Below are positions 6,086 to 62,909 of a stretch of 64,000 nucleotides of DNA, piece after piece. A program made the translations under genes and the position numbers. The notes below the pieces were generated by a model. The model was given only the letters and a program-made list of their open reading frames with translations. It did not search any database and was not told where the DNA came from. Location: contig CAZVHB010000001.1 in assembly GCA_964626965.1 (NCBI GenBank), positions 1,818 through 65,817 of the forward strand, read 5' to 3'. Position 1 is the first letter of the stretch. Every line of letters starts with the position of its first letter. This stretch comes from an uncultured Candidatus Saccharibacteria bacterium (GTDB lineage Bacteria > Patescibacteriota > Minisyncoccia > Phycocordibacterales > UBA9973).

Positions 6086-8959
6086 ATGAAAAACATATTT
6101 ACAAAAATTAGTTCAAAAGCATACATAGGCGCACTTGCGCTCTTTTTGGCTTTTGGTCTTACAAGCCAAGCATATGCTGGCGCAGTTGCATGGGCAGGTC
6201 CAACAGAGTTTGGTACTATCGCTAATGTTACCGGAACATCAATCGTCGAAAGTAGTCCTTATACACCATTTTCTTATGCAAATACATCTTCTGCGTCTGC
6301 AGGTGATAAAGTTGCGGTTATTGTGTATTTCCACAATAAAGGAAATGCTGCATCTCCAAACACATATATTAAAGTAAATAAATCAACCAACGGCTCTGCC
6401 TCTACGTTTACATTTACTGGTTCTGTGTCTGGTGGTGGAGCTTCAAAATCTGGCTCAACAACAGTGAACCTTTCTTCTAGTCAAACACTCACGTATATCC
6501 CAGGATCACTACGCGTTAGTAAAGACCGTGCTCCAGTAGGGTACTCAGTATCAAATGATACAGACGTTTTTTCAGGTGCTGGTCTTGATATTGGGATGGT
6601 ACAAGGAATGGATACTTGCGGAACAGACGCACTCTGTCACCAAGGTTCTGTTGCACTTGGATTTCAAGTAAGTTCAACTTCTACAACTCATCTTTGTTCA
6701 AATGGACAAGATGATGACGGAGATCTCCTTATCGATATGAATGACCCAGGATGTACTGACCCAACTGATGATAATGAATACAATCTTGTATCACCACTTG
6801 TGTGTACAATCAATTCTTTCACTGGATCACCTTTGACTGTTGCTTCTGGTGGATATACAAATCTTTCATGGAACACAACAAACTGTACAACTGTTACTGT
6901 TGATGGATTTACCTATCCTGTCGATGGTAGTGGAAATTTTGGCCCACTCTTTGTCGGTAAAACATACTATCTTGCTGCTTCAAACGGAACTAGTACTGAC
7001 TCAGAAACAGTCTATGTTGGTGTAAATACTGTTGCTTCAGCATGTACAATTGATACATACTATGCATCACCAACTACAGTAACTTCAGGTGGATATACAA
7101 CAATTTATTGGAATACATCAAACTGTACGACTGTTACTATCGATGGTATGCCTCAGTCAGTAGACGGAAGTAATTCTTTTGGTCCGATCTATTCTGGTAA
7201 AACATACAACATTGTTGCGTCAAACAGTACAAGTACTGATTCAGATAGTCTCTACGTTGGAACAAATTCTGTAAATAACTGTACGATTGATAATTTCTAC
7301 GCATCACCATCTACTGTTTCTTCAGGGAACTACACAACACTTCATTGGAATACATCAAACTGTGACCAAGTGACGATCGACGGTATTACTTATTATTCTG
7401 TTGATGGAAGTGGATCTTTTGGACCACTCTACAGTGGACGAAGTTACCAAATCCAAGCATGGAAAACTAGTCAATCTCCAGTTTCTCAAACAACATACGT
7501 ATCAGTTGATACATACTCTTCAAACAACTGTAGTATCGATACTTTTTATGCATCACCTACAACAGTAATCTCAGGTAGTACTACTCAACTCTTTTGGAAT
7601 ACATCAAACTGCGACCAGGTTACTGTTGATGGTATTAATTATGGTGTTGATGGAAGTGGTTATTTCGGCCCACTCTATAGTGGACGAAGTTACGTGCTCA
7701 ATGCGTGGAAAAATGGTCAAACTGTACGTACACAAACAGTCTATGTTGGTGTAAATTCTGTCAATAATTCATCTTACGCATGTAATGATGGGTATGATAA
7801 TGATGGTGACGGACGTGTAGACTATCCAAATGACGCTGGTTGTTACTCATCAACTGATAACGATGAATACAACTATGTTGCACCAGCTGTTTTGAATACT
7901 GTTGTGACAACACTCAACCCAAGTAATCTTACATCTTCTTCTGCACGTTTGAATGGATCTATCTTCAATGGTGGAAATAATGCAACTCAGTTTTATTTTG
8001 AATGGGGAACAGATACAAATTCTCTTCCAAACAAAACAAATTCACAAACAACCTTTTCAGATAATTCAGTAACGTACTTTGATACTGCATACAATCTTTC
8101 AACTGGTGTTACCTATTACTATCGTGCAGTTGCACAAAAAAGTAATGGAGTGGTCATCCGTGGCGATATTAGACAATTTCGCTTGATTGAAGTGGTAACT
8201 CCTGTATTTACAAATACAGTGACACGAGTAGTTACGGTGCCAGCTCCAGTAGTACAAGAGAGAGGAGTAGTTGTCGGACTTGGAACAAATCTTGTACAGC
8301 TTCGATATATTACGAATGATATCCTTAGTACAAATACTGGTGGTTTTGGAATCACTCAAACTGGTATCAATCAAAATGTAAACAATGGTGTACAAAATGT
8401 CTGTGTTGATGACAGTATTAAATTTGTTGTTGAATACAGAAATATCTCAACAATTACACTTAATAATGCAATCCTTCATATTGATATTCCAAAAGATGTC
8501 GACTTCCGAAGTTCATCAGCCGGAGTATTTAATAAAGCAGACAATACTATCACTATCAATGTAGGAACACTCACTCCTGGTCAATCAGGTCAAGTATCTT
8601 TCGACGGAATTGTTATGAGTAGTGCAGCAAATCGAGATCTTCTCGTTGTCCCAGCAACACTCTCATTTGAAAATCCAAACAATGGTGCTCGAGAAACAGC
8701 GATTGCGTACGGACTCGCAACGACTCAAAACTGTATTAAAAATGGGGGACTTGCCGGATTCGCATTCGGTTCAGGATTCTTTCCAGATACACTCTTTGGA
8801 TGGTTGCTCTTAATTCTCGTACTCCTCGCTCTGATTTACCTTCTTCGAAGAATGTTTATGGTGTATGGAATCGGACCAAGATCAAAGACCACAACCACAA
8901 CGACTACACAAAGACATTACGAGGATATGGATATTCCAACAGCGCCATACCAACACTAA
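6086..8959 (+). CDS. Large cell-surface protein (957 aa): signal peptide, 4 tandem ~80-aa repeats flanked by Asp-rich CxxGxDxDGDG motifs, a fibronectin-III-like domain, a DUF11-like domain and a C-terminal TM anchor
   Basis: Repeats CTIDxFYASPxTVxSGxYTxLxWNTSNC..VT.DG..Y.VDGSG.FGP.YSG. Also NATQFYFEWGTD (fn3-like), TPGQSGQVSFDGIV (DUF11-like) and a C-terminal GSGFFPDTLFGWLLLILVLLALIYLLRR. Confidence 0.75.
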   Translation: MKNIFTKISSKAYIGALALFLAFGLTSQAYAGAVAWAGPTEFGTIANVTGTSIVESSPYTPFSYANTSSASAGDKVAVIVYFHNKGNAASPNTYIKVNKSTNGSASTFTFTGSVSGGGASKSGSTTVNLSSSQTLTYIPGSLRVSKDRAPVGYSVSNDTDVFSGAGLDIGMVQGMDTCGTDALCHQGSVALGFQVSSTSTTHLCSNGQDDDGDLLIDMNDPGCTDPTDDNEYNLVSPLVCTINSFTGSPLTVASGGYTNLSWNTTNCTTVTVDGFTYPVDGSGNFGPLFVGKTYYLAASNGTSTDSETVYVGVNTVASACTIDTYYASPTTVTSGGYTTIYWNTSNCTTVTIDGMPQSVDGSNSFGPIYSGKTYNIVASNSTSTDSDSLYVGTNSVNNCTIDNFYASPSTVSSGNYTTLHWNTSNCDQVTIDGITYYSVDGSGSFGPLYSGRSYQIQAWKTSQSPVSQTTYVSVDTYSSNNCSIDTFYASPTTVISGSTTQLFWNTSNCDQVTVDGINYGVDGSGYFGPLYSGRSYVLNAWKNGQTVRTQTVYVGVNSVNNSSYACNDGYDNDGDGRVDYPNDAGCYSSTDNDEYNYVAPAVLNTVVTTLNPSNLTSSSARLNGSIFNGGNNATQFYFEWGTDTNSLPNKTNSQTTFSDNSVTYFDTAYNLSTGVTYYYRAVAQKSNGVVIRGDIRQFRLIEVVTPVFTNTVTRVVTVPAPVVQERGVVVGLGTNLVQLRYITNDILSTNTGGFGITQTGINQNVNNGVQNVCVDDSIKFVVEYRNISTITLNNAILHIDIPKDVDFRSSSAGVFNKADNTITINVGTLTPGQSGQVSFDGIVMSSAANRDLLVVPATLSFENPNNGARETAIAYGLATTQNCIKNGGLAGFAFGSGFFPDTLFGWLLLILVLLALIYLLRRMFMVYGIGPRSKTTTTTTTQRHYEDMDIPTAPYQH
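6803..7774 (+). repeat. Four tandem ~240-bp (79-83 aa) intragenic repeats
   Basis: Each repeat starts with a TGT (Cys) codon, at 6803, 7043, 7280 and 7529. Confidence 0.8.
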
Positions 8960-14098: not shown

Positions 14099-14109
14099 TC
14101 AATTATTTT

Positions 14110-14156
14110 CCTCACTACAAAAAAACACCCGATTGGGTGTTTTTTTGTAGTGAGGA
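14110..14156 (+). terminator. Rho-independent terminator (extended stem)
   Basis: cctcactacaaaaaaacacccgattgggtgtttttttgtagtgagg. The core hairpin is the reverse complement of the one at 13506. Confidence 0.8.
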
Positions 14157-14223
14157 AACACGCTATGTGAATATCTTCTGTTTACTTCTTTCTTTTTTAA
14201 AAGTATCTGGGTATACTATACGT

Positions 14224-25233: not shown

Positions 25234-25307
25234 GCCCATCGACTTCGATTCATAAGCCCTTGCGAAAGTGAGGGTTTTTTTATTACCCAAAATAGAGTAT
25301 AGTGTGT

Positions 25308-25632
25308 GGGTTGCACAGATACACGCGCTCTGCCTTAAAACAGAGTGAGGAAAGTCCGAACACACCTACAGCAATGTAGAGAATGGTAGTGGGTAATACC
25401 CATCCGTAGTAATACGCGTGGTGCGAGCAGTGACGCCAATGTCGAAAGGCTAGGCATCCTTCGGGATGATGCCTCTCGAGAGAGAGGAGTGAAACGGCTA
25501 AATCCGTACTTGTGTGCAAGATCGCGTCTGAGATAGAAATATCGAGGAAGAATCGCTTGAGGTAGATAGTAATGTCTATCCTAGATAAATGTGTATACTA
25601 GACAGAATTCGGCTTATCGTGTGACGTTATAA
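25308..25632 (+). ncRNA. rnpB: RNase P RNA (bacterial type, reduced)
   Basis: P4 5' strand GAGGAAAGUCCGAAC and P4 3' strand ACAGAAUUCGGCUUA with the expected single-nucleotide bulge. TATAGT lies upstream and a terminator follows. The ends are approximate. Confidence 0.65.
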
Positions 25633-31307: not shown

Positions 31308-31323
31308 ATGTATATACGTCTTT

Positions 31324-31366
31324 AAAAACAAGGCGTTTTGGTGTAGCCAAAACGCCTTGTTTTTAA
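31324..31366 (+). terminator. Rho-independent terminator
   Basis: aaaaacaaggcgttttgg-tgta-gccaaaacgccttgttttt. Confidence 0.8.
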
Positions 31367-31420
31367 ACCAAAAACGTGTAAAATGAGACTATTATTTACT
31401 TAATAGAGTATTCCAATATA

Positions 31421-33722: not shown

Positions 33723-33796
33723 TCTCGACGTAAAGTCGGGATCCCGAACGACGCTTCGGGATTCTAAATGATACATGCCAAATGCTAAAACAAGAG

Positions 33797-33848
33797 GCAA
33801 AAACACAGCAGAGTGGCCAAAGGCCACTCTGCTGTGTTTTTGCCTTCT
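33797..33848 (+). terminator. GC-clamp terminator (ACAGCAG...GGCC-aaa-GGCC...CTGCTGT)
   Basis: ggcaaaaacacagcagagtggccaaaggccactctgctgtgtttttgcc. Confidence 0.85.
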
Positions 33849-39192: not shown

Positions 39193-39239
39193 GGGATTAG
39201 TAAGTAGTAAGTAGTAAATAGGACTACCGTGAACATAAT

Positions 39240-39317
39240 ACAGTAGGGCGCCTATGGCGCCCTACTGTATTTCTATAACCTGTAACCTTTCACCTGTACC
39301 CTAGTTCGTGCTATAGT
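39240..39317 (+). promoter_or_regulatory. Terminator-promoter cassette 1: GC-clamp hairpin, then 4 tandem heptads (ataacct gtaacct ttcacct gtaccct), 9 bp, TATAGT
   Basis: acagtagggcgcc-tat-ggcgccctactgt; heptads 39275-39302; TATAGT 39312-39317; ATG at 39330. Confidence 0.6.
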
Positions 39318-44401: not shown

Positions 44402-44530
44402 ATGGCAGCTAAAAAAGCAAAAAAGAAAGTAGCTAAGAAAGCAGTTAAGAAAACTGTAAAAAAAGTAGCTAAGAAAGCAGTTAAGAAAACTGTAAAGAAA
44501 GCAACAAAGAAGGTAGCGAAGAAAAGATAG
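44402..44530 (+). CDS. 42-aa Lys/Ala-rich basic protein (histone H1-like / Hc-like nucleoid protein). It is not in the ORF track because it is shorter than 60 aa.
   Basis: MAAKKAKKKVAKKAVKKTVKKVAKKAVKKTVKKATKKVAKKR. It contains an internal 36-nt tandem duplication and has its own terminator. The 82-aa minus-strand ORF 44321-44569 is its antisense shadow. Confidence 0.6.
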   Translation: MAAKKAKKKVAKKAVKKTVKKVAKKAVKKTVKKATKKVAKKR

Positions 44531-47963: not shown

Positions 47964-48007
47964 GAGAGAATGCTAAATTCTAAATGTTAAATGCTAAAAT
48001 AGAAACC

Positions 48008-49096: not shown

Positions 49097-49684
49097 ATGA
49101 CTTTGCATAAGATTGCAAAACCTCTACAGATCTTTGCTGTTCTTCCTATTTTAACAGCAAACGTTGTATCGGCGACACCACTGTTGCCTGTACAAGATAA
49201 CGTCCCCACTGTAGTTGTATCGCAGAATGAACAAAATGGGCTCCTTTTTGGAAAGAAGCTTGATAACAAACAAGCTGAACTCGAAGAAAAGGCACAAAAA
49301 ATTGACAATTATTTTAAAAGTAAAAATCTACCTATGGCAGGATATGGTAAGAAGTTCGTAGAAGAAGCTGAGAAAAACGGCCTCCCATACAATCTTTTGC
49401 CGGCAGTCGGTATGATAGAAACTACTGGAGGTAAGTTTGCTTGTAAAAAAGTAGCCTTTAGTTGGTTCGGATGGGGATCATGTAAAATTCCTTTCCAATC
49501 TGTCGACGAATCTATCGAGAAAATTTCTCACCACCTTGGTGGAAATCACCCGAAGACCTCACGGTATTATGACGGCAAGGATGTTGACGGTATTCTTAAA
49601 TCGTACAACCCACCTTCTGTTGTTCCAGACTATAGTGCGAAAGTTCAGAGAGTTATGACTGCGATTGATAATCAACCAGTCTAA
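49097..49684 (+). CDS. Hypothetical secreted protein
   Basis: Signal peptide MTLHKIAKPLQIFAVLPILTANVVSA. No firm domain. Confidence 0.5.
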   Translation: MTLHKIAKPLQIFAVLPILTANVVSATPLLPVQDNVPTVVVSQNEQNGLLFGKKLDNKQAELEEKAQKIDNYFKSKNLPMAGYGKKFVEEAEKNGLPYNLLPAVGMIETTGGKFACKKVAFSWFGWGSCKIPFQSVDESIEKISHHLGGNHPKTSRYYDGKDVDGILKSYNPPSVVPDYSAKVQRVMTAIDNQPV

Positions 49685-49685
49685 A

Positions 49686-49727
49686 ACAAAAAACCATCAA
49701 GCAATTGATGGTTTTTTGTTTTTTTGG
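49686..49727 (+). terminator. Rho-independent terminator
   Basis: aaaaaaccatcaa-gcaa-ttgatggtttttt followed by gtttttttgg. Confidence 0.85.
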
Positions 49728-50347: not shown

Positions 50348-50364
50348 AGTCGTATTGATTTAGA

Positions 50365-50403
50365 AAAAAGAGATGCATGGCGTAGCCATGCATCTCTTTT
50401 TTA
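50365..50403 (+). terminator. Rho-independent terminator
   Basis: aaaaaagagatgcatggc-gta-gccatgcatctctttttt. Confidence 0.85.
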
Positions 50404-54119: not shown

Positions 54120-54159
54120 ATTGATTTTTTAGCTCATATCCTATTTCGCTTAGGAATAT

Positions 54160-54201
54160 AAAGACCATATATTGACAAATATATGGTCTTTATGCTATAA
54201 T
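54160..54201 (+). promoter_or_regulatory. Sigma70 promoter TTGACA-17-TATAAT whose -35 element is centred in a 13-bp perfect palindrome (AAAGACCATATAT-N6-ATATATGGTCTTT)
   Basis: Operator-like dyad overlapping the -35. The MutS-like gene lies downstream. Confidence 0.55.
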
Positions 54202-54255: not shown

Positions 54256-56259
54256 ATGCAGAAACTCAATTTGCCAAAATTTACTTTTTGGAACAAAATC
54301 GCTAAAAAAATCTCTTTTATTAATATGAAGGAGGTAAATTCTCTGGTTGCTAAGTTGCAACTCGGAGAGATGTCTTTGTTGAATTCAATGGGGATTTCAG
54401 ATTCATTGGAGATTATAAATCGCCAAGAGACAATGAAGTTACTCAATAAGTACCCTGAACTTCGTAAGTTTATCATGAGGCATGACCTATCATCCGTATT
54501 TCCTGGTAATGAAATTTCTTTTTTGGATCAGTTTAATGTAAATTCAGAACACTCTCTTTTTGTCAAAAAACTAAAACACCTATTGGCTGTTCTTCGTAAA
54601 ATAAAACAAAAAGAAGGTCGTTTTGTCGGTAGTGTAAAAACTTTTTTTGATTTTCTTCAGGACAACCTCGAAGCTATTAATGTAAATGAAAATGAATTTG
54701 CTTTAGTTGCTGGTAAGGAGATTTCAAAAGGTTCATTTATGCAAGGTTCAGTTGATTATGATTTAACATTGCAAGCAAATGGTTATGACGTTATTAATGA
54801 TGCGTCATCCAGATGTTTTGGTCACAAGAGATATTCTTACAACGAAAGACTCATCACAATACCATATGATTGGTCAGAGTTTAAATGGTGGGCGTATCGT
54901 TATTTATTGCCATGGAACGGTGTAAGAATTTATTTACATAATTCCCGTGCCATGAAGGTCAACAACACAACAAGTATTATCGAAAAGACTCCTCCAGTTG
55001 TTATTGAAACAATACGTGATTTCTTGGAATATCGCGTTGTAAGTCCTATCTGGCAAGAGTTGGCGAAGACTTCTAAAGATTTTCCTGACTCCGTAAGATT
55101 TAGAATTAGGTGTTTATTCACGTATAATCATACGGGTCTTAAAGTTAAACTTGGAAGTATTCAACCTCTTGGGACTTCTATCGCTTCAAAAGAAGATTTC
55201 GCTAAAGTGTATCCATTTCTCAATAATGATCTTATTGGGTATTCAAAGGATAAGCTTGAGTCATTTAAGGAATTTTCTATGTCTACATATTCTAATCTTG
55301 AAATCAAGAACGGTACATTACAGGTATTGATGGCTTTCTGGAAGGCTCTCGAAGTTCAAAAAGAATATCGTAAATTGATTTATGATGGAATGATTATTGA
55401 GTCAAGAAATGTTGATATAGAATTTAAATTATTTTCCATGAAACAAGTCTGTGAATTAGAAGATATCAGTCCGTATCACCAAAATATTATGACAGTTCGC
55501 GATTTTATTGGTCATCATTTTGAAACTTTACAGAGCATGGCTAAGATGATGGATACATTCGCGGATAGGGCTCAATCTTGGAATCTACCGTTTAGCTTTC
55601 CTGACATTTTAGGTGAAGAGCATCATCTCATAGAGTTTTCAAAATTGTTGCCCGTTCACCTTATTAACAGAACAAAAGTTATTGGTGGTGATGAAGTGAA
55701 GATAAAACCAGACGATTTGGTTCCAATCACCATGCCTTCATTGAACGGCAGGATGGTTGCATTAACAGGTCAAAACGCCGGCGGTAAAACAGTCGCACTA
55801 GTTAGCTTGATGGATAACATTTATCTTGCTCAGTCTGGACTTCCTGTTTTTGCTGAATCATTTGCACTCAATCCAAAAGAAACAGTAGCAACTGTCTTTA
55901 TTGAAAAAGGTGAAGGTTCACTTTTGGAACTTGTACTTGGTAAAATTAAAAATGTTATCGAAGTGTCAAAAGTTTCGAATCCCAATAAAACAATTGTTGT
56001 TATGGATGAACTATTAAGTGGAACACAGGAAATGGCTGGTCGCGACTTGGGTGAAGAAGTTTTAAAGAAATTGAATACCATCGGTTGCTCAGTTATCTTT
56101 AATACTCAAATTACTGCTTTGGCAGAGTTTGCGGAAACTGATCTTAACGCATTGACCTTTAAATTTGATCTTGATCATCTTATTAAACCAGGCATAGGTT
56201 CTGGTGGTTCTAAGCGATTAGCAGATCAAATTGGTTTAACAGCAGTTCTTGAAAGTTAG
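54256..56259 (+). CDS. MutS-family ABC ATPase domain (domain V) protein with a ~470-aa N-terminal region of unknown function
   Basis: The C-terminus has VALTGQNAGGKTV (Walker A), VVMDELLSGT (Walker B) and KPGIGSGGSKRLADQIGL (MutS C-terminal HTH-like). No mismatch-binding or Smr domains. Confidence 0.6.
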   Translation: MQKLNLPKFTFWNKIAKKISFINMKEVNSLVAKLQLGEMSLLNSMGISDSLEIINRQETMKLLNKYPELRKFIMRHDLSSVFPGNEISFLDQFNVNSEHSLFVKKLKHLLAVLRKIKQKEGRFVGSVKTFFDFLQDNLEAINVNENEFALVAGKEISKGSFMQGSVDYDLTLQANGYDVINDASSRCFGHKRYSYNERLITIPYDWSEFKWWAYRYLLPWNGVRIYLHNSRAMKVNNTTSIIEKTPPVVIETIRDFLEYRVVSPIWQELAKTSKDFPDSVRFRIRCLFTYNHTGLKVKLGSIQPLGTSIASKEDFAKVYPFLNNDLIGYSKDKLESFKEFSMSTYSNLEIKNGTLQVLMAFWKALEVQKEYRKLIYDGMIIESRNVDIEFKLFSMKQVCELEDISPYHQNIMTVRDFIGHHFETLQSMAKMMDTFADRAQSWNLPFSFPDILGEEHHLIEFSKLLPVHLINRTKVIGGDEVKIKPDDLVPITMPSLNGRMVALTGQNAGGKTVALVSLMDNIYLAQSGLPVFAESFALNPKETVATVFIEKGEGSLLELVLGKIKNVIEVSKVSNPNKTIVVMDELLSGTQEMAGRDLGEEVLKKLNTIGCSVIFNTQITALAEFAETDLNALTFKFDLDHLIKPGIGSGGSKRLADQIGLTAVLES

Positions 56260-56276: not shown

Positions 56277-56308
56277 TAAAAACCCGTCTTATTAGGCGGG
56301 TTTTTTTA
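56277..56308 (+). terminator. Rho-independent terminator
   Basis: aaaaacccg-tcttattag-gcgggttttttt. Confidence 0.7.
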
Positions 56309-57141: not shown

Positions 57142-57182
57142 CAAATAGTGTATAGGTTTTAGGTGACAGGTTATAGTATAAA

Positions 57183-57276
57183 CAGACGAGGTGTCCGAAG
57201 GACACCTCGTCTGTTGTCTATTCTGTATTTTCTGTACCCTACAACCTACCACCTAAACCCTCGCTCATGCTATAGT
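57183..57276 (+). promoter_or_regulatory. Terminator-promoter cassette 2: GC-clamp hairpin, then heptads (gtaccct acaacct accacct aaaccct), 9 bp, TATAGT, N6, ATG
   Basis: acagacgaggtgtcc-gaa-ggacacctcgtctgt; heptads 57234-57261; TATAGT 57271-57276; ATG at 57283. Confidence 0.6.
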
Positions 57277-57282
57277 GTCTGC

Positions 57283-58626
57283 ATGAATTCCGACAACACA
57301 CTCTTTTTCCAAACCCACCCTGAACTGAAAAATATTCTAGAAGCACACGGAAGTAAGACAATTATGGAGTATATTACTTTTGTGAATGACTTTATTTCAA
57401 AGGGTGATTTTTCTTTTTTTGACCAACGACAGGAAGATTTTTTTGCAGTGTATCAAGAAACACTGAAATCGATTTTTGACGAGCGTGTCATTCGGGAGTC
57501 TATTGAAACCCTTAAAAAAAATAGACTTATCTCTACTGCTGATCATCAAGGTGTCATCTCACATCCATTTTTTCTCAGTAGTACCTATGCTCGTACTCTC
57601 TATGCTCAAAAAGTAGGTCAGGGGAGTGTTGTGACTTTTCCGTGTGCAAGTATCTCTCTTTCAAATTCATCTTTTCCTCGAGGGCTTATTGTTCATGATC
57701 GTGATGATGTTGAGAAAAAAATATATTTTAAATCTCTCGTCCATAAACTCAATCCGGTCTTTTGTGAAGAAAAAATAGAGAGAGACGGTGTACAGAAAAT
57801 GTATGATACTCTCTCTTCAATTACTCTTGAGAAAGAAATGCGTAAAAAAATACTTTCTGTATTTAAAGATATCTTTTTTTCAGAAAAATTTCTAAGCTTG
57901 GAAAGTTTCGATGAACAGTGTACGTATGGGAGTTTAATGCTTTGGAAGTATGTTCCTACTTTCGAAAATATAGATCTCATCTATGTATCTCAAGAAAAAG
58001 TAGTAACTGATTTGATTATTAAAAAACATTTGGGTGGCGATACGCTGATCCACTCTCTTTTGTTCGATGAAACGTATCATGCACTTTTTGTAAGATATTT
58101 TGATGGAATTACTGGGGCATTTGATATACAGGCGAAGAAAGGTACGCAACTGTTTTGGGGTGTTCGCGCGCATGAACGTGTCGCACTTTTTATTCAAGAA
58201 AATAAGCTCATTGATAGTAATGGAGATATATTTCTAATAATAGAGACAGAAGAAATAAAAAAAGCATTACAAGAGAGGCGAATCATGCCGAGCATGCCAC
58301 TCGTTTTTATTGTGCTCTCTTTTTACTATGGTTTTGTCTGTGGTGGGGGATTTAGTCAGGTGGATTATCTGGGGTCTATGAAAAATGCCTGGATGAATAT
58401 GCTTCGTGATGTTGGAGAAAATAGTGAAACTGATCAAGTAGAAAAAATACCGACTAATATTTTGCTTGGTGACTATGCAACGATTCAGTCTGGAGATACT
58501 AAAAAATTGCGTCATGCTTTTCATTTAATCATGAAAGATTCAGCACATACTGAAGATATTAAAAAAATCTTCTTACAGAGAACTATATCAGAAGACATGA
58601 AAGATGGATTTACTCTCTATTTATAA
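57283..58626 (+). CDS. Hypothetical protein (448 aa)
   Basis: Long ORF driven by the heptad-type promoter. No recognisable domain. Confidence 0.5.
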   Translation: MNSDNTLFFQTHPELKNILEAHGSKTIMEYITFVNDFISKGDFSFFDQRQEDFFAVYQETLKSIFDERVIRESIETLKKNRLISTADHQGVISHPFFLSSTYARTLYAQKVGQGSVVTFPCASISLSNSSFPRGLIVHDRDDVEKKIYFKSLVHKLNPVFCEEKIERDGVQKMYDTLSSITLEKEMRKKILSVFKDIFFSEKFLSLESFDEQCTYGSLMLWKYVPTFENIDLIYVSQEKVVTDLIIKKHLGGDTLIHSLLFDETYHALFVRYFDGITGAFDIQAKKGTQLFWGVRAHERVALFIQENKLIDSNGDIFLIIETEEIKKALQERRIMPSMPLVFIVLSFYYGFVCGGGFSQVDYLGSMKNAWMNMLRDVGENSETDQVEKIPTNILLGDYATIQSGDTKKLRHAFHLIMKDSAHTEDIKKIFLQRTISEDMKDGFTLYL

Positions 58627-59268
58627 ATGTATTTTTGCCACATTTGTACGGATTGAAAACGTTTCTCCCTTTTTTGTGACTTCTATGATTTCACCAGTAG
58701 GTTGAATTACTTTTTGGATGCCTGTGTATATACTGAATGCGATACTTCCAGAACCACAACTTGTTTCTGTGACGAAGGAGTTAGTTTTTTGTACATAAAT
58801 AATTGGGAAGATTTGTTCGTCTTTGTAAAGAATAATTCCAAATGCGGGTAGTTTGTATTTTTTACATAATTGCGCCACCGTCTTTTTTGAGATGTCTTGT
58901 TTATTTTTTTTCGGGAGAATAACGAAACCAATTCCATCAAAAATAATACTATTTTTATTTTTCTTAAAAGGGAGTGTTATTGTAATTTTTGTATATTTTT
59001 TTGTATTTGTAAAAGAAACTTTTTCTTTTAATCCGCTTGCTTCGAGGTGTCCTTTTTTTCCGAGTGTTGAAGCAAAGGCAAGTACTGCATTGATGCATAA
59101 TTCTTCTCCCATCATGACGAGTTTCGGTTTTTTTTCTTTGTACAAAAAACCAACTTGCTCCACTTGAGTGAGCAGTTTTTTAATAGTATCTTTTTTATGT
59201 AATTCACCGTGTTCTGAAACAAGCGCGGTAGTATTACCTTTTGCTATGATAAATATATCTACTTTCAT
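58621..59268 (-). CDS. Diaminopimelate epimerase-like (DapF/PhzF-fold) protein, short form
   Basis: Two pseudo-symmetric halves with Cys-containing motifs, EELCINAVLAFA and ETSCGSGSIAFS, matching the DapF catalytic Cys positions. Confidence 0.4.
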   Translation of the reverse strand: MKVDIFIIAKGNTTALVSEHGELHKKDTIKKLLTQVEQVGFLYKEKKPKLVMMGEELCINAVLAFASTLGKKGHLEASGLKEKVSFTNTKKYTKITITLPFKKNKNSIIFDGIGFVILPKKNKQDISKKTVAQLCKKYKLPAFGIILYKDEQIFPIIYVQKTNSFVTETSCGSGSIAFSIYTGIQKVIQPTGEIIEVTKKGETFSIRTNVAKIHL

Positions 59269-59338
59269 CTTTTGTATATAAATATGCTACCGTATAATAC
59301 CATATTTTTAGAGAAATAGATTTTTCTGTGTTTATATG

Positions 59339-59425
59339 CGGAAGAGGGGAGATTCGAACTCCCGGTGCGGTTTCCCGCACGCCACCTTTCCAAGGTGGTA
59401 CATTAAACCGCTCTGCCACCCTTCC
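59339..59425 (-). tRNA. tRNA-Ser (anticodon GGA), type II with a long variable arm; CCA is not encoded
   Basis: RNA sequence GGAAGGGUGGCAGAGCGGUUUAAUGUACCACCUUGGAAAGGUGG...GGGAGUUCGAAUCUCCCCUCUUCCG. Anticodon loop UUGGAAA, T-loop GTTCGAATC. TATAGC lies 7 nt upstream. Confidence 0.85.
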
Positions 59426-60010: not shown

Positions 60011-60430
60011 ATGATGCAAACAATTGAAGTTGAGACACCAATAGGGAAGATGACCGTAATGTCAGGTAATAGTACTCTCCTCAAAAAATACCAAAAAAAT
60101 ATAAAGAATTACTTTTCCAAGAAAAAGTACGATATGGATTTTGCTGATTTTGATATAGAAGGTACACCATTTCAAAAAAAAGTTTTGGAGGTACTCTTTA
60201 GTGTTCCTTATGGAGAGACTATTTCATATAAGGAACTGGCAAAATACGCAGGCAAACCAAAAGCAATTCGTGCTGTTGCGAATGTAGTTGCGAGTAATAA
60301 ACACTATATTTTTATTCCGTGCCATCGTGTGGTCGCAAGTGATGGAACACTTGGTGGATACGGTGCAGGATTTAAGAGAAAAGCGTGGTTATTGAGGCAT
60401 GAAAGTGGAAGGATTATAAATACTAAATGA
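60011..60430 (+). CDS. ogt: Methylated-DNA--protein-cysteine methyltransferase
   Basis: Active site IPCHRVV; HTH YGETISYKELA. Confidence 0.85.
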   Translation: MMQTIEVETPIGKMTVMSGNSTLLKKYQKNIKNYFSKKKYDMDFADFDIEGTPFQKKVLEVLFSVPYGETISYKELAKYAGKPKAIRAVANVVASNKHYIFIPCHRVVASDGTLGGYGAGFKRKAWLLRHESGRIINTK

Positions 60431-60452: not shown

Positions 60453-60494
60453 GGGGGGGGGGGGGGGGGGGGCGGGGGGGGGGGGTGGGTGGGG
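60453..60494 (+). repeat. 42-nt poly-G tract (interrupted by c, t, t) followed by A13
   Basis: gcgggggggggggggggggggcggggggggggggtgggtgggg aataaaaaaaaaaaaa, in a genome of ~35% GC. Confidence 0.9.
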
Positions 60495-60622: not shown

Positions 60623-61402
60623 ATGCACACAGCACACAGTGTTAAAAAAATAGGATTCTATGATTCTGGATTAGGAGGACTCTTTTTAATGCACTATGTA
60701 CAAACAGTATTTCCGGGATACGAATATGTCTTTTTGGGGGATGAGAAAAATCTACCCTATGGTCCACGTCCTGTCGAAGAACTATTTACCTTTGCTCGTA
60801 CTGCTATCGATTTTTTATATGATAAAGAAAATTGCGATATTGTCGTTATTGCGTGCAATACGCTCTCTGCGACTGTGTATGAAACTTTGGCGCTCGAGTA
60901 CAAGGTAAAGCATCCTGACCGATTACTTATCGATGTCATTACACCGACTATCGACGCACTTGAGAAAGATACACACTTCAGTGTCTTTGGAACACTACGC
61001 ACTATTGAAAGTCATCTCTATCGAGATGGCATTACTAAAAATTTTCCTGACGCGAAAGTCGATGAGTACGTCGCGACTAATCTTGCATTGTTGATAGAAG
61101 AAAAAAGAGATACGACCGAATCAATCAGTTCTTTTAAAGATCAGGTTTATCCTCATCCTCATACGATGATCTTGAGTTGTACTCATTATGGAATAGTGGA
61201 AGATGTTTTTCGAAAGGTATATCCAGAGTGTTCCGAGATTATTTCCCAGCACTCAATCATAACTGATCTCTTTCGTTTCATGCTCCATCCAGGAGGTGAA
61301 GAGGTATCTGTGCGGATATTGGTGACAAAAGATAATCCAGTGCTTACTGCATATAGTAAAGAATGGTTTCCTTCGGTAGGGCCTGAAGTGATAAATCTCT
61401 AA
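60623..61402 (+). CDS. murI: Glutamate racemase
   Basis: IGFYDSGLGGL; VIACNTLSA; SCTHYG. Confidence 0.9.
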   Translation: MHTAHSVKKIGFYDSGLGGLFLMHYVQTVFPGYEYVFLGDEKNLPYGPRPVEELFTFARTAIDFLYDKENCDIVVIACNTLSATVYETLALEYKVKHPDRLLIDVITPTIDALEKDTHFSVFGTLRTIESHLYRDGITKNFPDAKVDEYVATNLALLIEEKRDTTESISSFKDQVYPHPHTMILSCTHYGIVEDVFRKVYPECSEIISQHSIITDLFRFMLHPGGEEVSVRILVTKDNPVLTAYSKEWFPSVGPEVINL

Positions 61403-62870: not shown

Positions 62871-62909
62871 TTCTTTATAATTTGGAATTTATAATTTATA
62901 ATTGTTTGT

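Follow-up and report, generated by a model that had tools for sequence, protein, structure and literature searches.

The gene product and its predicted architecture

The stretch analysed here, 64,000 nucleotides of a contig from an uncultured Candidatus Saccharibacteria bacterium (referred to as the window), contains at exactly 54256..56259 on the forward strand a single open reading frame (ORF), which begins with ATG and encodes a 667-residue protein whose C-terminal part resembles the ABC ATPase of MutS proteins. Judged by its sequence, the product is that of a real gene and not of a chance ORF, because ~176 cluster representatives with E ≤ 1e-30 align to it end to end. Reading of the translation places a Walker A motif (GQNAGGKT) at 55768-55791, a Walker B motif (IVVMDE) at 55993-56010 and the sequence NTQIT at 56101-56115, the two Walker motifs having the forms GxxxxGK[ST] and hhhhDE. 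Across the 77 sequences of our conservation alignment (A1), the invariant positions are R56, G189, G505, G510, K511, G528, S555, D584, E585, Q618 and G646, among them those of the Walker motifs (G505, G510, K511, D584, E585) and the signature serine (Ser555, 55918-55920). The family motif ERGxGST was aligned with the 'STF' region of MutS2 and MutS, the 667-residue protein itself reading GSL. The protein ends ~27 residues past the ATPase core, and its C-terminal tail, PGIGSGGSKRLADQIGL, aligns with the helix-turn-helix segment that follows the ATPase in MutS2.

Pfam MutS_V matches residues 503-632 with 24.3 bits, under its gathering score of 30.2. Over the family, for which curated models were compared in 70 members, MutS_V matches all 70 at E ≤ 1 (best E 2.3e-11), and the family consensus reaches 33.2 bits; most members score under the Pfam threshold (8 of 11 proteins scored individually), and this would account for the family's lack of annotation. 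NCBIfam mutS2 (TIGR01069) aligns with residues 484-631 (E 2e-13, 49.5 bits against an equivalog cutoff of 400 bits), and NCBIfam KamC (NF052383) aligns residues 480-617 with its profile positions 290-426 (E 4e-10, 39.2 bits against a cutoff of 300 bits). Among PDB sequences, the MutS2 chains 7vuf_B (E 3e-8) and 9kce_B (E 6e-8) are the top matches, with MSH6 ranking behind them. Motifs, profiles and PDB matches thus bear out the C-terminal MutS ABC ATPase with Walker A, Walker B and a helix-turn-helix-like segment that an earlier note on this DNA had described, as well as its statement that only the last ~190 residues are recognisable, ordinary sequence searches reaching just the final ~190-220 residues.

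The earlier note had also listed the mismatch-recognition (I), connector (II) and Smr domains as missing, and on this point our searches agree with it. Scanning the 667-residue protein against Pfam and NCBIfam gave no match to MutS_I, MutS_II, KOW/MSSS or Smr; the models for domains I and II (PF01624 and PF05188) match none of the 70 members, Smr (PF01713) matches neither this protein nor the ten longest members, and MSSS (PF20297) matches neither this protein nor the 70 members, with no sequence left that could hold it. A genuine MutS2 from the same database has PF20297, PF00488 and PF01713.

For the N-terminal region, we predicted the structure using AlphaFold2 with the 77-sequence alignment (mean pLDDT 90.4, pTM 0.82), and this model was used throughout, a single-sequence model with a pLDDT of 33.5 having been discarded. 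In a structural comparison the best-scoring matches of the model were MSH2 (score 26.0, 389 residues aligned), MSH3 (24.5, 378 residues), MSH6 (2o8b_B; 24.2, 395 residues), Thermotoga maritima MutS2 (24.2, 370 of 484 residues), Bacillus subtilis MutS2 on a disome (23.6, 388 residues), a second MSH6 chain (8ag6_B; 21.6, 378 residues), Taq MutS (21.3, 388 residues) and Thermus thermophilus MutS2 (20.5, 365 of 471 residues), followed by ordinary ABC ATPases at 12.8 or less over ~155 residues. The ATPase and the tail supply at most ~220 aligned residues, and therefore at least 150-190 N-terminal residues of the model superpose on the MutS core/lever. All top matches in Foldseek were likewise chains of the MutS family, many of the alignments covering the entire query. 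Approximately 260 N-terminal residues, forming a cap and an insert at the position of the clamp, lie outside the MutS alignments.

Profile comparisons give a fainter signal in the same region. Pfam MutS_III matches 8 of the 70 members weakly (best E 4.9e-5) and is the best N-terminal match of the family consensus, where residues 53-423 align with profile positions 46-186 of 194 at E 0.0016, a match that reads as a domain III split by a large insert. In addition, hhalign against a MutS1 sequence reaches back to residue 407, and the HMMER match of the family profile to Msh3 covers profile positions 315-588. Matches of the family profile to PDB sequences run almost wholly through the ATPase part. 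An hhalign comparison of the family N-terminus with that of MutS2 was not significant, the MutS2 profile consisting of Atribacteria sequences at ≥75% identity (Neff 1.4), and neither were phmmer and hmmsearch comparisons with single MutS1 and MutS2 sequences.

Taken together, the protein very probably consists of a cap, a core/lever interrupted in the place of the clamp by an oversized insert, an ABC ATPase and a helix-turn-helix tail, all encoded on the forward strand. The cap (residues 1-49) is conserved in the alignment, the N-terminal ~60 residues being more conserved than the remaining N-terminal region (P7, W12, N23, G46, E52 and R56, at 84-100%). The core/lever, resembling domain III in the predicted structure and in the MutS_III matches, would comprise residues 50-157 and 331-445: its first half, together with the cap, is encoded by 54256..54726 (residues 1-157) and ends in a long helix (125-157), and its second half (55246..55590) contains the returning helices 331-367 and 405-442 supported by hhalign to MutS1, the Msh3 match and predicted secondary structure. 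This order of a helix, hairpins with helices and returning helices fits the III-IV-III arrangement of MutS. Between the two halves, in the place of domain IV, residues 158-330 (54727..55245) are set apart by secondary structure, pLDDT, conservation and the split MutS_III match; they contain two long beta-hairpins (160-191 and 279-307) and two helices (211-236 and 247-272), carry the invariant G189 and a conserved G-Y-K-K-Y-S motif, and are ~160 residues bigger than the MutS2 clamp region. From their position, these residues would be the clamp. An internal duplication of a helix-plus-hairpin module within the insert was not supported by hhalign (probability 0.7%). The MutS-type ABC ATPase (domain V; residues 446-640, 55591..56175) is defined by profiles, alignments, motifs and invariant columns, and the tail (residues 641-667, 56176..56256) by alignment with MutS2 tails and two predicted helices (652-659 and 661-666), with H641, G646 and I647 conserved.

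This architecture revises the picture of a domain-V-only ATPase joined to a novel N-terminus. Sequence comparison of the N-terminus with MutS2 gave nothing significant, and the predicted structure matches the MutS core/lever, with weak agreement from MutS_III, so that the claimed absence of a lever domain falls; what stands of the claimed novelty is the cap and the enlarged clamp module, neither of which is covered by the MutS alignments.

Family, distribution and relation to MutS paralogues

HMMER, run exhaustively over 1.84 billion cluster representatives, returned 176 proteins at E ≤ 1e-30, a number that grows to 226 with a threshold of 1e-10 and to 1176 with one of 1e-3. Because the count jumps from 226 to 1176, we regard the proteins as a discrete family apart from the rest of the MutS superfamily. 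The top matches are nearly all 640-700 residues long, and their alignments cover residues ~5-665 with an identity of ~30%; the longest members have no added domains or fusions, their surplus length being N-terminal insert. Word-indexed homologue searches, with either the protein or the 77-sequence alignment as query, returned the query itself as the sole match, as the word index misses this divergent, low-complexity-prone family.

Scanning one genome per GTDB species yielded 17 family loci, of which 16 cover most of the protein and one is a C-terminal fragment. Fourteen of these carry CPR/Patescibacteria labels (Paceibacterota, Nealsonbacteria, Vogelbacteria, Nomurabacteria, Parcubacteria and Saccharibacteria, the last for two loci), and the remaining three carry unconfirmed labels of proteobacterial metagenome-assembled genomes. 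The latter, two labelled Gammaproteobacteria (L006 and L015) and one Micavibrio (L009), are full-length members on contigs of 35-46% GC; either they are mislabelled or the family has reached lineages outside Patescibacteria. What an eighteenth locus, in Eubacterium, encodes is only a distant MutS-V protein of 514 residues. Phage and plasmid collections yielded no member, nor did 2.9 million IMG/VR contigs. On present sampling by sequence, this is an unnamed family of ~200 clusters found almost only in Patescibacteria. The sole named cluster member is annotated "hypothetical protein", and a literature search found no paper linking MutS2-like proteins to Patescibacteria. The family has no assigned role, in keeping with the earlier remark that MutS-like ATPases without mismatch domains are poorly understood.

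Relating the family to known MutS paralogues, the curated models for MutS2 and KamC match 67 of the 70 members (best E 3e-18) and 68 of the 70 (best E 4.6e-15), respectively, while two MutS1 models trail with 27 and 16 members, all models scoring far under their own cutoffs. The family profile finds MutS2 in the PDB at E 1e-15 and MutS/MSH proteins at ~1e-7. Sequence similarity thus places the family on the MutS2-like (MutS-II) side of the superfamily, very divergent from MutS2 itself, as a Patescibacteria-centred variant of the MutS2-like lineage that has been unannotated until now.

Like the family, MutS2/RqcU (TIGR01069; 7vuf, 9kce, 7qv3) is without domains I and II and has a core/lever and clamp ahead of the ATPase. 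In contrast to the family, it has a coiled-coil/KOW region and Smr, its N-terminal region spans ~290 residues instead of ~445, it has neither the oversized clamp-position insert nor the conserved cap, and its switch motif is 'TH', as in MutS, where the family has an invariant 'TQ'. MutS1/MSH proteins differ further, having domain I with its Phe-X-Glu motif and connector II, whereas the family has only ~50 residues before the core, and their sequence similarity to the family is weaker than that of MutS2. No MutL was seen near the gene. MutS3, MutS4 and MutS5 are paralogues of unknown function with only the ATPase (MutSac) and core (MutSd) (Lin, Nei & Ma 2007, PMC2190696), and further uncharacterised prokaryotic MutS subfamilies have been noted (PMC12292046). 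MutS3-5 resemble our family in keeping the ATPase, sometimes with MutSd, and in lacking domains I, II and Smr. They were defined before Patescibacteria genomes existed, and going by their descriptions the family would differ from them: MutS4 occurs as adjacent A/B gene pairs and MutS5 is archaeal, whereas the family gene is single-copy and stands alone at all loci examined. No second MutS-like gene lies adjacent in 37 loci, which argues against a MutS4 arrangement.

The KamC model matches the members about as well as the MutS2 model does, and KamC, the reactivase ATPase of lysine 5,6-aminomutase, is an example of a MutS-type ATPase whose client is not DNA, which would allow the protein to be a KamC-type remodelling ATPase, that is, a MutS-like reactivase of a radical/B12 enzyme and not a nucleic-acid clamp. 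The match is however confined to the ATPase core, at 39 bits against the 300-bit cutoff, no gene for an aminomutase (kamDE) or another client lies in linkage, and a lever with a clamp is the typical design of MutS proteins that embrace nucleic acid. We consider a KamC-type function very improbable.

Transcription unit and genomic surroundings

A sigma-70-type promoter, TTGACA-18-TGnTATAAT, lies at 54172..54201 on the forward strand, 55 nt before the ATG, with 12 of 12 matches and a TG extension, and comparable TTGAC(A/T)...-10 elements occur 60-140 nt upstream of most homologues. Directly after the stop codon, at a distance of 19 nt, a forward-strand intrinsic terminator (56278..56305) combines a 12-bp stem with a T-run (-16.9 kcal/mol, z -4.3), because of which the gene is probably monocistronic. 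No known RNA family or riboswitch was found in the leader. We therefore read the locus as an ordinary chromosomal gene, probably transcribed alone from its own strong promoter.

The -35 hexamer is overlapped by a perfect inverted repeat of 16 nt whose halves are 4 nt apart, ATAAAGACCATATATT-GACA-AATATATGGTCTTTAT (54158..54193, forward strand), and for which an operator function had been claimed. As RNA it would fold at -20.1 kcal/mol (z -6.7), and nowhere else in the window does its half-site occur. It begins 39 nt past the stop (54119) of an upstream HlyD/FtsX/ABC operon and is the sole hairpin in that gap. The window contains 48 such inverted repeats, mostly A/T-flanked hairpins 0-70 nt after gene ends, a pattern that this palindrome fits equally well, and it is not conserved upstream of homologues, which have different palindromes or none. 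Of the two readings, which are compatible, an upstream-operon terminator overlapping the promoter is somewhat likelier than a dedicated operator, and the claim of an operator-controlled promoter is weakened to that extent.

Several related elements were seen elsewhere. Upstream of the MutS-like gene at two closely related loci, L001 (~7935-7995) and L003 (~7920-7985), the palindrome CCAATATTGG occurs twice, ~45-50 nt apart, between promoter and start codon, an operator-like layout not seen in the window or at other loci. Within the window, perfect inverted repeats of 14-24 nt with A-rich 5' and T-rich 3' flanks follow gene ends at 14107-14158, 33795-33845, 31321-31367, 49683-49722 and 50364-50402, and appear to be bidirectional intrinsic terminators, unusually long and perfect. 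Tandem repeats of period 7 in 3-4 copies occur at 39198-39221, 39276-39302, 47969-47998, 57238-57259 and 62874-62903; their units differ by site (TAGTAAG, TAACCTG, AATGCTA, CCTACAA and TTTATAA), and they are intergenic, mostly just before gene starts.

The neighbours are as had been described: a gene for a SIMPL-domain protein, an ORF of no known family, a DapF-like ORF and tRNA-Ser. The SIMPL gene (PF04402, E 8e-45), the 3' neighbour on the forward strand, has its own terminator at 57181-57215. The following forward-strand ORF had been called from a GTG (57163-58626), a call that crosses the SIMPL terminator hairpin; its start is probably the ATG at 57283, six bases after a TGcTATAGT element (57268-57276), which would make its mRNA leaderless. 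The 447-residue product has no Pfam, NCBIfam or PADLOC match and is alone in its 90% cluster. It is this ORF, and not the MutS-like gene, that a period-7 repeat, the heptad promoter of the earlier account, precedes. On the reverse strand follow a DapF-fold racemase-like ORF of 215 residues (58621-59268; best matches the histidine racemase models HisR, E 2e-15, and CntK, E 7e-15), which scores far under both cutoffs, is shorter than the models (254-271 positions) and has no Pfam match at E ≤ 0.01, and tRNA-Ser(GGA) (59338-59425).

As a unit, this block does not hold together, with terminators standing between the genes. All-against-all BLASTP of the ORFs from 45 fetched loci and the window (37 non-redundant locus groups) revealed no conserved neighbour: the commonest neighbouring family, a generic ABC ATPase, occurs at no more than 4 loci, and at most 3 of 80 flanking ORFs share any Pfam family. 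The flanks hold mixed housekeeping genes (Obg, BipA, L10, S8, S12, UvrD, RmuC, PIF1, Nudix, transporters), and the homologues are nearly always bordered by gaps of 100-300 nt and preceded by a TTGAC(A/T)-type promoter of their own. We rejected an operon or island, given the terminators, the lack of conserved neighbours, the absence of an integrase or flanking repeat and the slight dip in GC (33-35.5% for the gene against a window mean of 37.7%).

These data also bear on the proposal as first made, in which a domain-V-only ATPase with a novel ~470-residue domain, encoded in an operator-controlled, tRNA-adjacent block, would serve in anti-recombination, defence or the control of DNA uptake. It has in its favour that sequence searches see only the C-terminal ATPase, that the ~260 residues of cap and insert have no MutS alignment, that a perfect 16-nt palindrome covers the -35 hexamer and that tRNA-Ser lies 3 kb downstream. 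The structural match of at least 150-190 N-terminal residues to the core/lever, along with the MutS_III matches, refutes it in part; in addition, the block is not conserved and its genes are parted by terminators, the palindrome is absent from homologues and resembles the window's terminator hairpins, and neither integrase nor flanking repeat accompanies the slight GC dip. As a whole, we find it hard to maintain and clearly unlikely.

A more specific role in anti-phage or anti-mobile-element defence, for example as a Mad8-like ATPase of the methylation-associated MADS system, could draw on weak PADLOC mad8 matches in 38 of the 70 members (best E 4e-7; E 0.0027 for the 667-residue protein, in the P-loop region only) and on the seemingly accessory nature of a family of ~200 clusters. 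The mad8 model, however, derives from HHpred alignments against PDB chains (10.1101/2023.03.30.534895), so that what it recognises may simply be an ATPase core of general type. Within ±6-8 kb at the 37 non-redundant loci there is neither a methyltransferase nor mad6, mad7 or any further conserved partner, the flanking genes are housekeeping, and no copy was found in the phage, plasmid and IMG/VR collections. We rejected a mobile-element or defence origin as unlikely; the defence role shares with the KamC function the lack of a linked partner gene and a similarity limited to the ATPase core, because of which both are very improbable.

Other features of the window were recorded in passing. A 42-nt run of almost only G at 60453-60494, between an MGMT-like ORF (60011-60430) and a glutamate-racemase-like ORF (60623-61402), is unusual for a genome of 38% GC; either a phase-variable tract or an artefact of the assembly could account for it. 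A forward-strand ORF of 957 residues at 6086-8959 has no Pfam match at E ≤ 1e-5 and lies amid housekeeping genes. Bacterial RNase P RNA class A is found at 25307-25632 on the forward strand with 100.6 bits against an Rfam gathering score of 100, which suggests a divergent or reduced RNA. At 44405-44524, in a stretch of 29% GC upstream of ORF 44705, an in-frame 12-nt/36-nt tandem repeat, GCAGCTAAGAAA, in ~10 copies would encode a Lys/Ala-rich repeat.

The switch residue and a possible clamp mechanism

While all other catalytic residues are kept in the family, the switch histidine is not: residue 618 (56107-56109), where MutS2 and MutS have the histidine of 'TH', is Gln in all 77 family sequences, and the MutS2 and MutS sequences in our alignments all read TTH or STH. 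At the H-loop of ABC ATPases, Gln is typical of slow, "degenerate" ATP sites, and by analogy Gln618 suggests slow hydrolysis and a long-lived ATP-bound state.

Our favoured explanation, to which we assign a probability of roughly one half, is that the protein is an Smr-less MutS2-like clamp ATPase with branched DNA as its likeliest substrate. Following the MutS/MutS2 paradigm, two subunits would dimerise by way of the ATPase heads and the tails, and the signature serine would work in trans in the composite ATP sites thus formed. The lever arms would bear the enlarged clamp modules, and ATP binding would shut these around nucleic acid, after which slow hydrolysis at the Gln618 switch would yield a long-lived ATP-bound clamp or switch state. 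Because the protein has no nuclease, its action would be one of binding, remodelling or recruiting and not of cutting. An analogy, one of function and not of sequence, is offered by the eukaryotic heterodimer MSH4-MSH5, which keeps the connector domain but lacks domain I, and which clamps recombination intermediates in an ATP-dependent manner without cutting them. The dimeric ATP-gated clamp is, by analogy, somewhat more probable than not.

The weakest step is the substrate, for which we propose, tentatively and with less than even confidence, branched or paired DNA such as recombination intermediates. The core of MutS2, without domains I and II, leaves a wider channel that may accommodate junction DNA (PMC12292046). 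Conservation of com genes extends across CPR, and Saccharibacteria take up DNA by natural transformation (PMC10633639). Saccharibacteria lack MutS and MutL (PMC8406219), yet two of the family loci bear their label. In such naturally competent Patescibacteria, often poor in mismatch repair, the protein might gate or stabilise recombination.

Several points weigh against this explanation. With the comparison sequences used, the N-terminus showed no significant sequence homology to either MutS2 or MutS1, the lever is assigned from predicted structure and weak Pfam matches, and the domain boundaries are approximate, the structural tools having given aligned lengths and not a residue-level superposition. 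The clamp-position insert is only mildly basic. Dimerisation and ATPase kinetics are carried over from the MutS/MutS2 paradigm, and the flanks, mixing translation and DNA genes, give no functional hint.

Moreover, the best-studied MutS2, that of B. subtilis, works on collided ribosomes and not on DNA (PMC10897456), and the family could accordingly comprise ribosome-rescue factors analogous to this protein (RqcU), in which the ATPase would split stalled or collided ribosomes and the cap and clamp would replace recruitment by KOW and Smr. The lever, clamp and ATPase of B. subtilis MutS2 do touch the lead ribosome, but it is KOW and especially Smr that recruit it to collisions (PMC10897456), and both are absent here. 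Linkage to genes of ribosome-associated quality control or of translation is not conserved either, and on general knowledge of ABC ATPases the change from His to Gln argues for slow turnover, a poor fit to a splitting motor. We regard ribosome rescue as rather unlikely, and continue to favour the clamp on branched DNA.

A bolder version of the clamp proposal, one we hold to be speculative and improbable as it stands, concerns lineages without MutS1/MutL and canonical MutS2, where the family would be the only MutS-superfamily protein. It would then represent a new class of slow-hydrolysing, nuclease-free clamps whose cap and clamp read a substrate used by no characterised MutS, for which incoming transforming DNA in its pairing with the chromosome and the atypical ribosome of CPR are candidates.

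The family adds a new branch to a superfamily already known, and with the conventional mode of action predicted for it the surprise is moderate. MutS paralogues without mismatch-binding domains are widespread, with known jobs only for MutS2 and MSH4/5, and the role of MutS2 has just recently moved from anti-recombination to ribosome rescue. The family is a candidate for handling recombination intermediates or stalled ribosomes in ultra-small, naturally competent bacteria, a question that natural transformation and Tn-seq, which make Saccharibacteria genetically tractable, render directly testable. If the bolder proposal is true, the family would control genome stability or translation quality in organisms living on scavenged nucleic acids.

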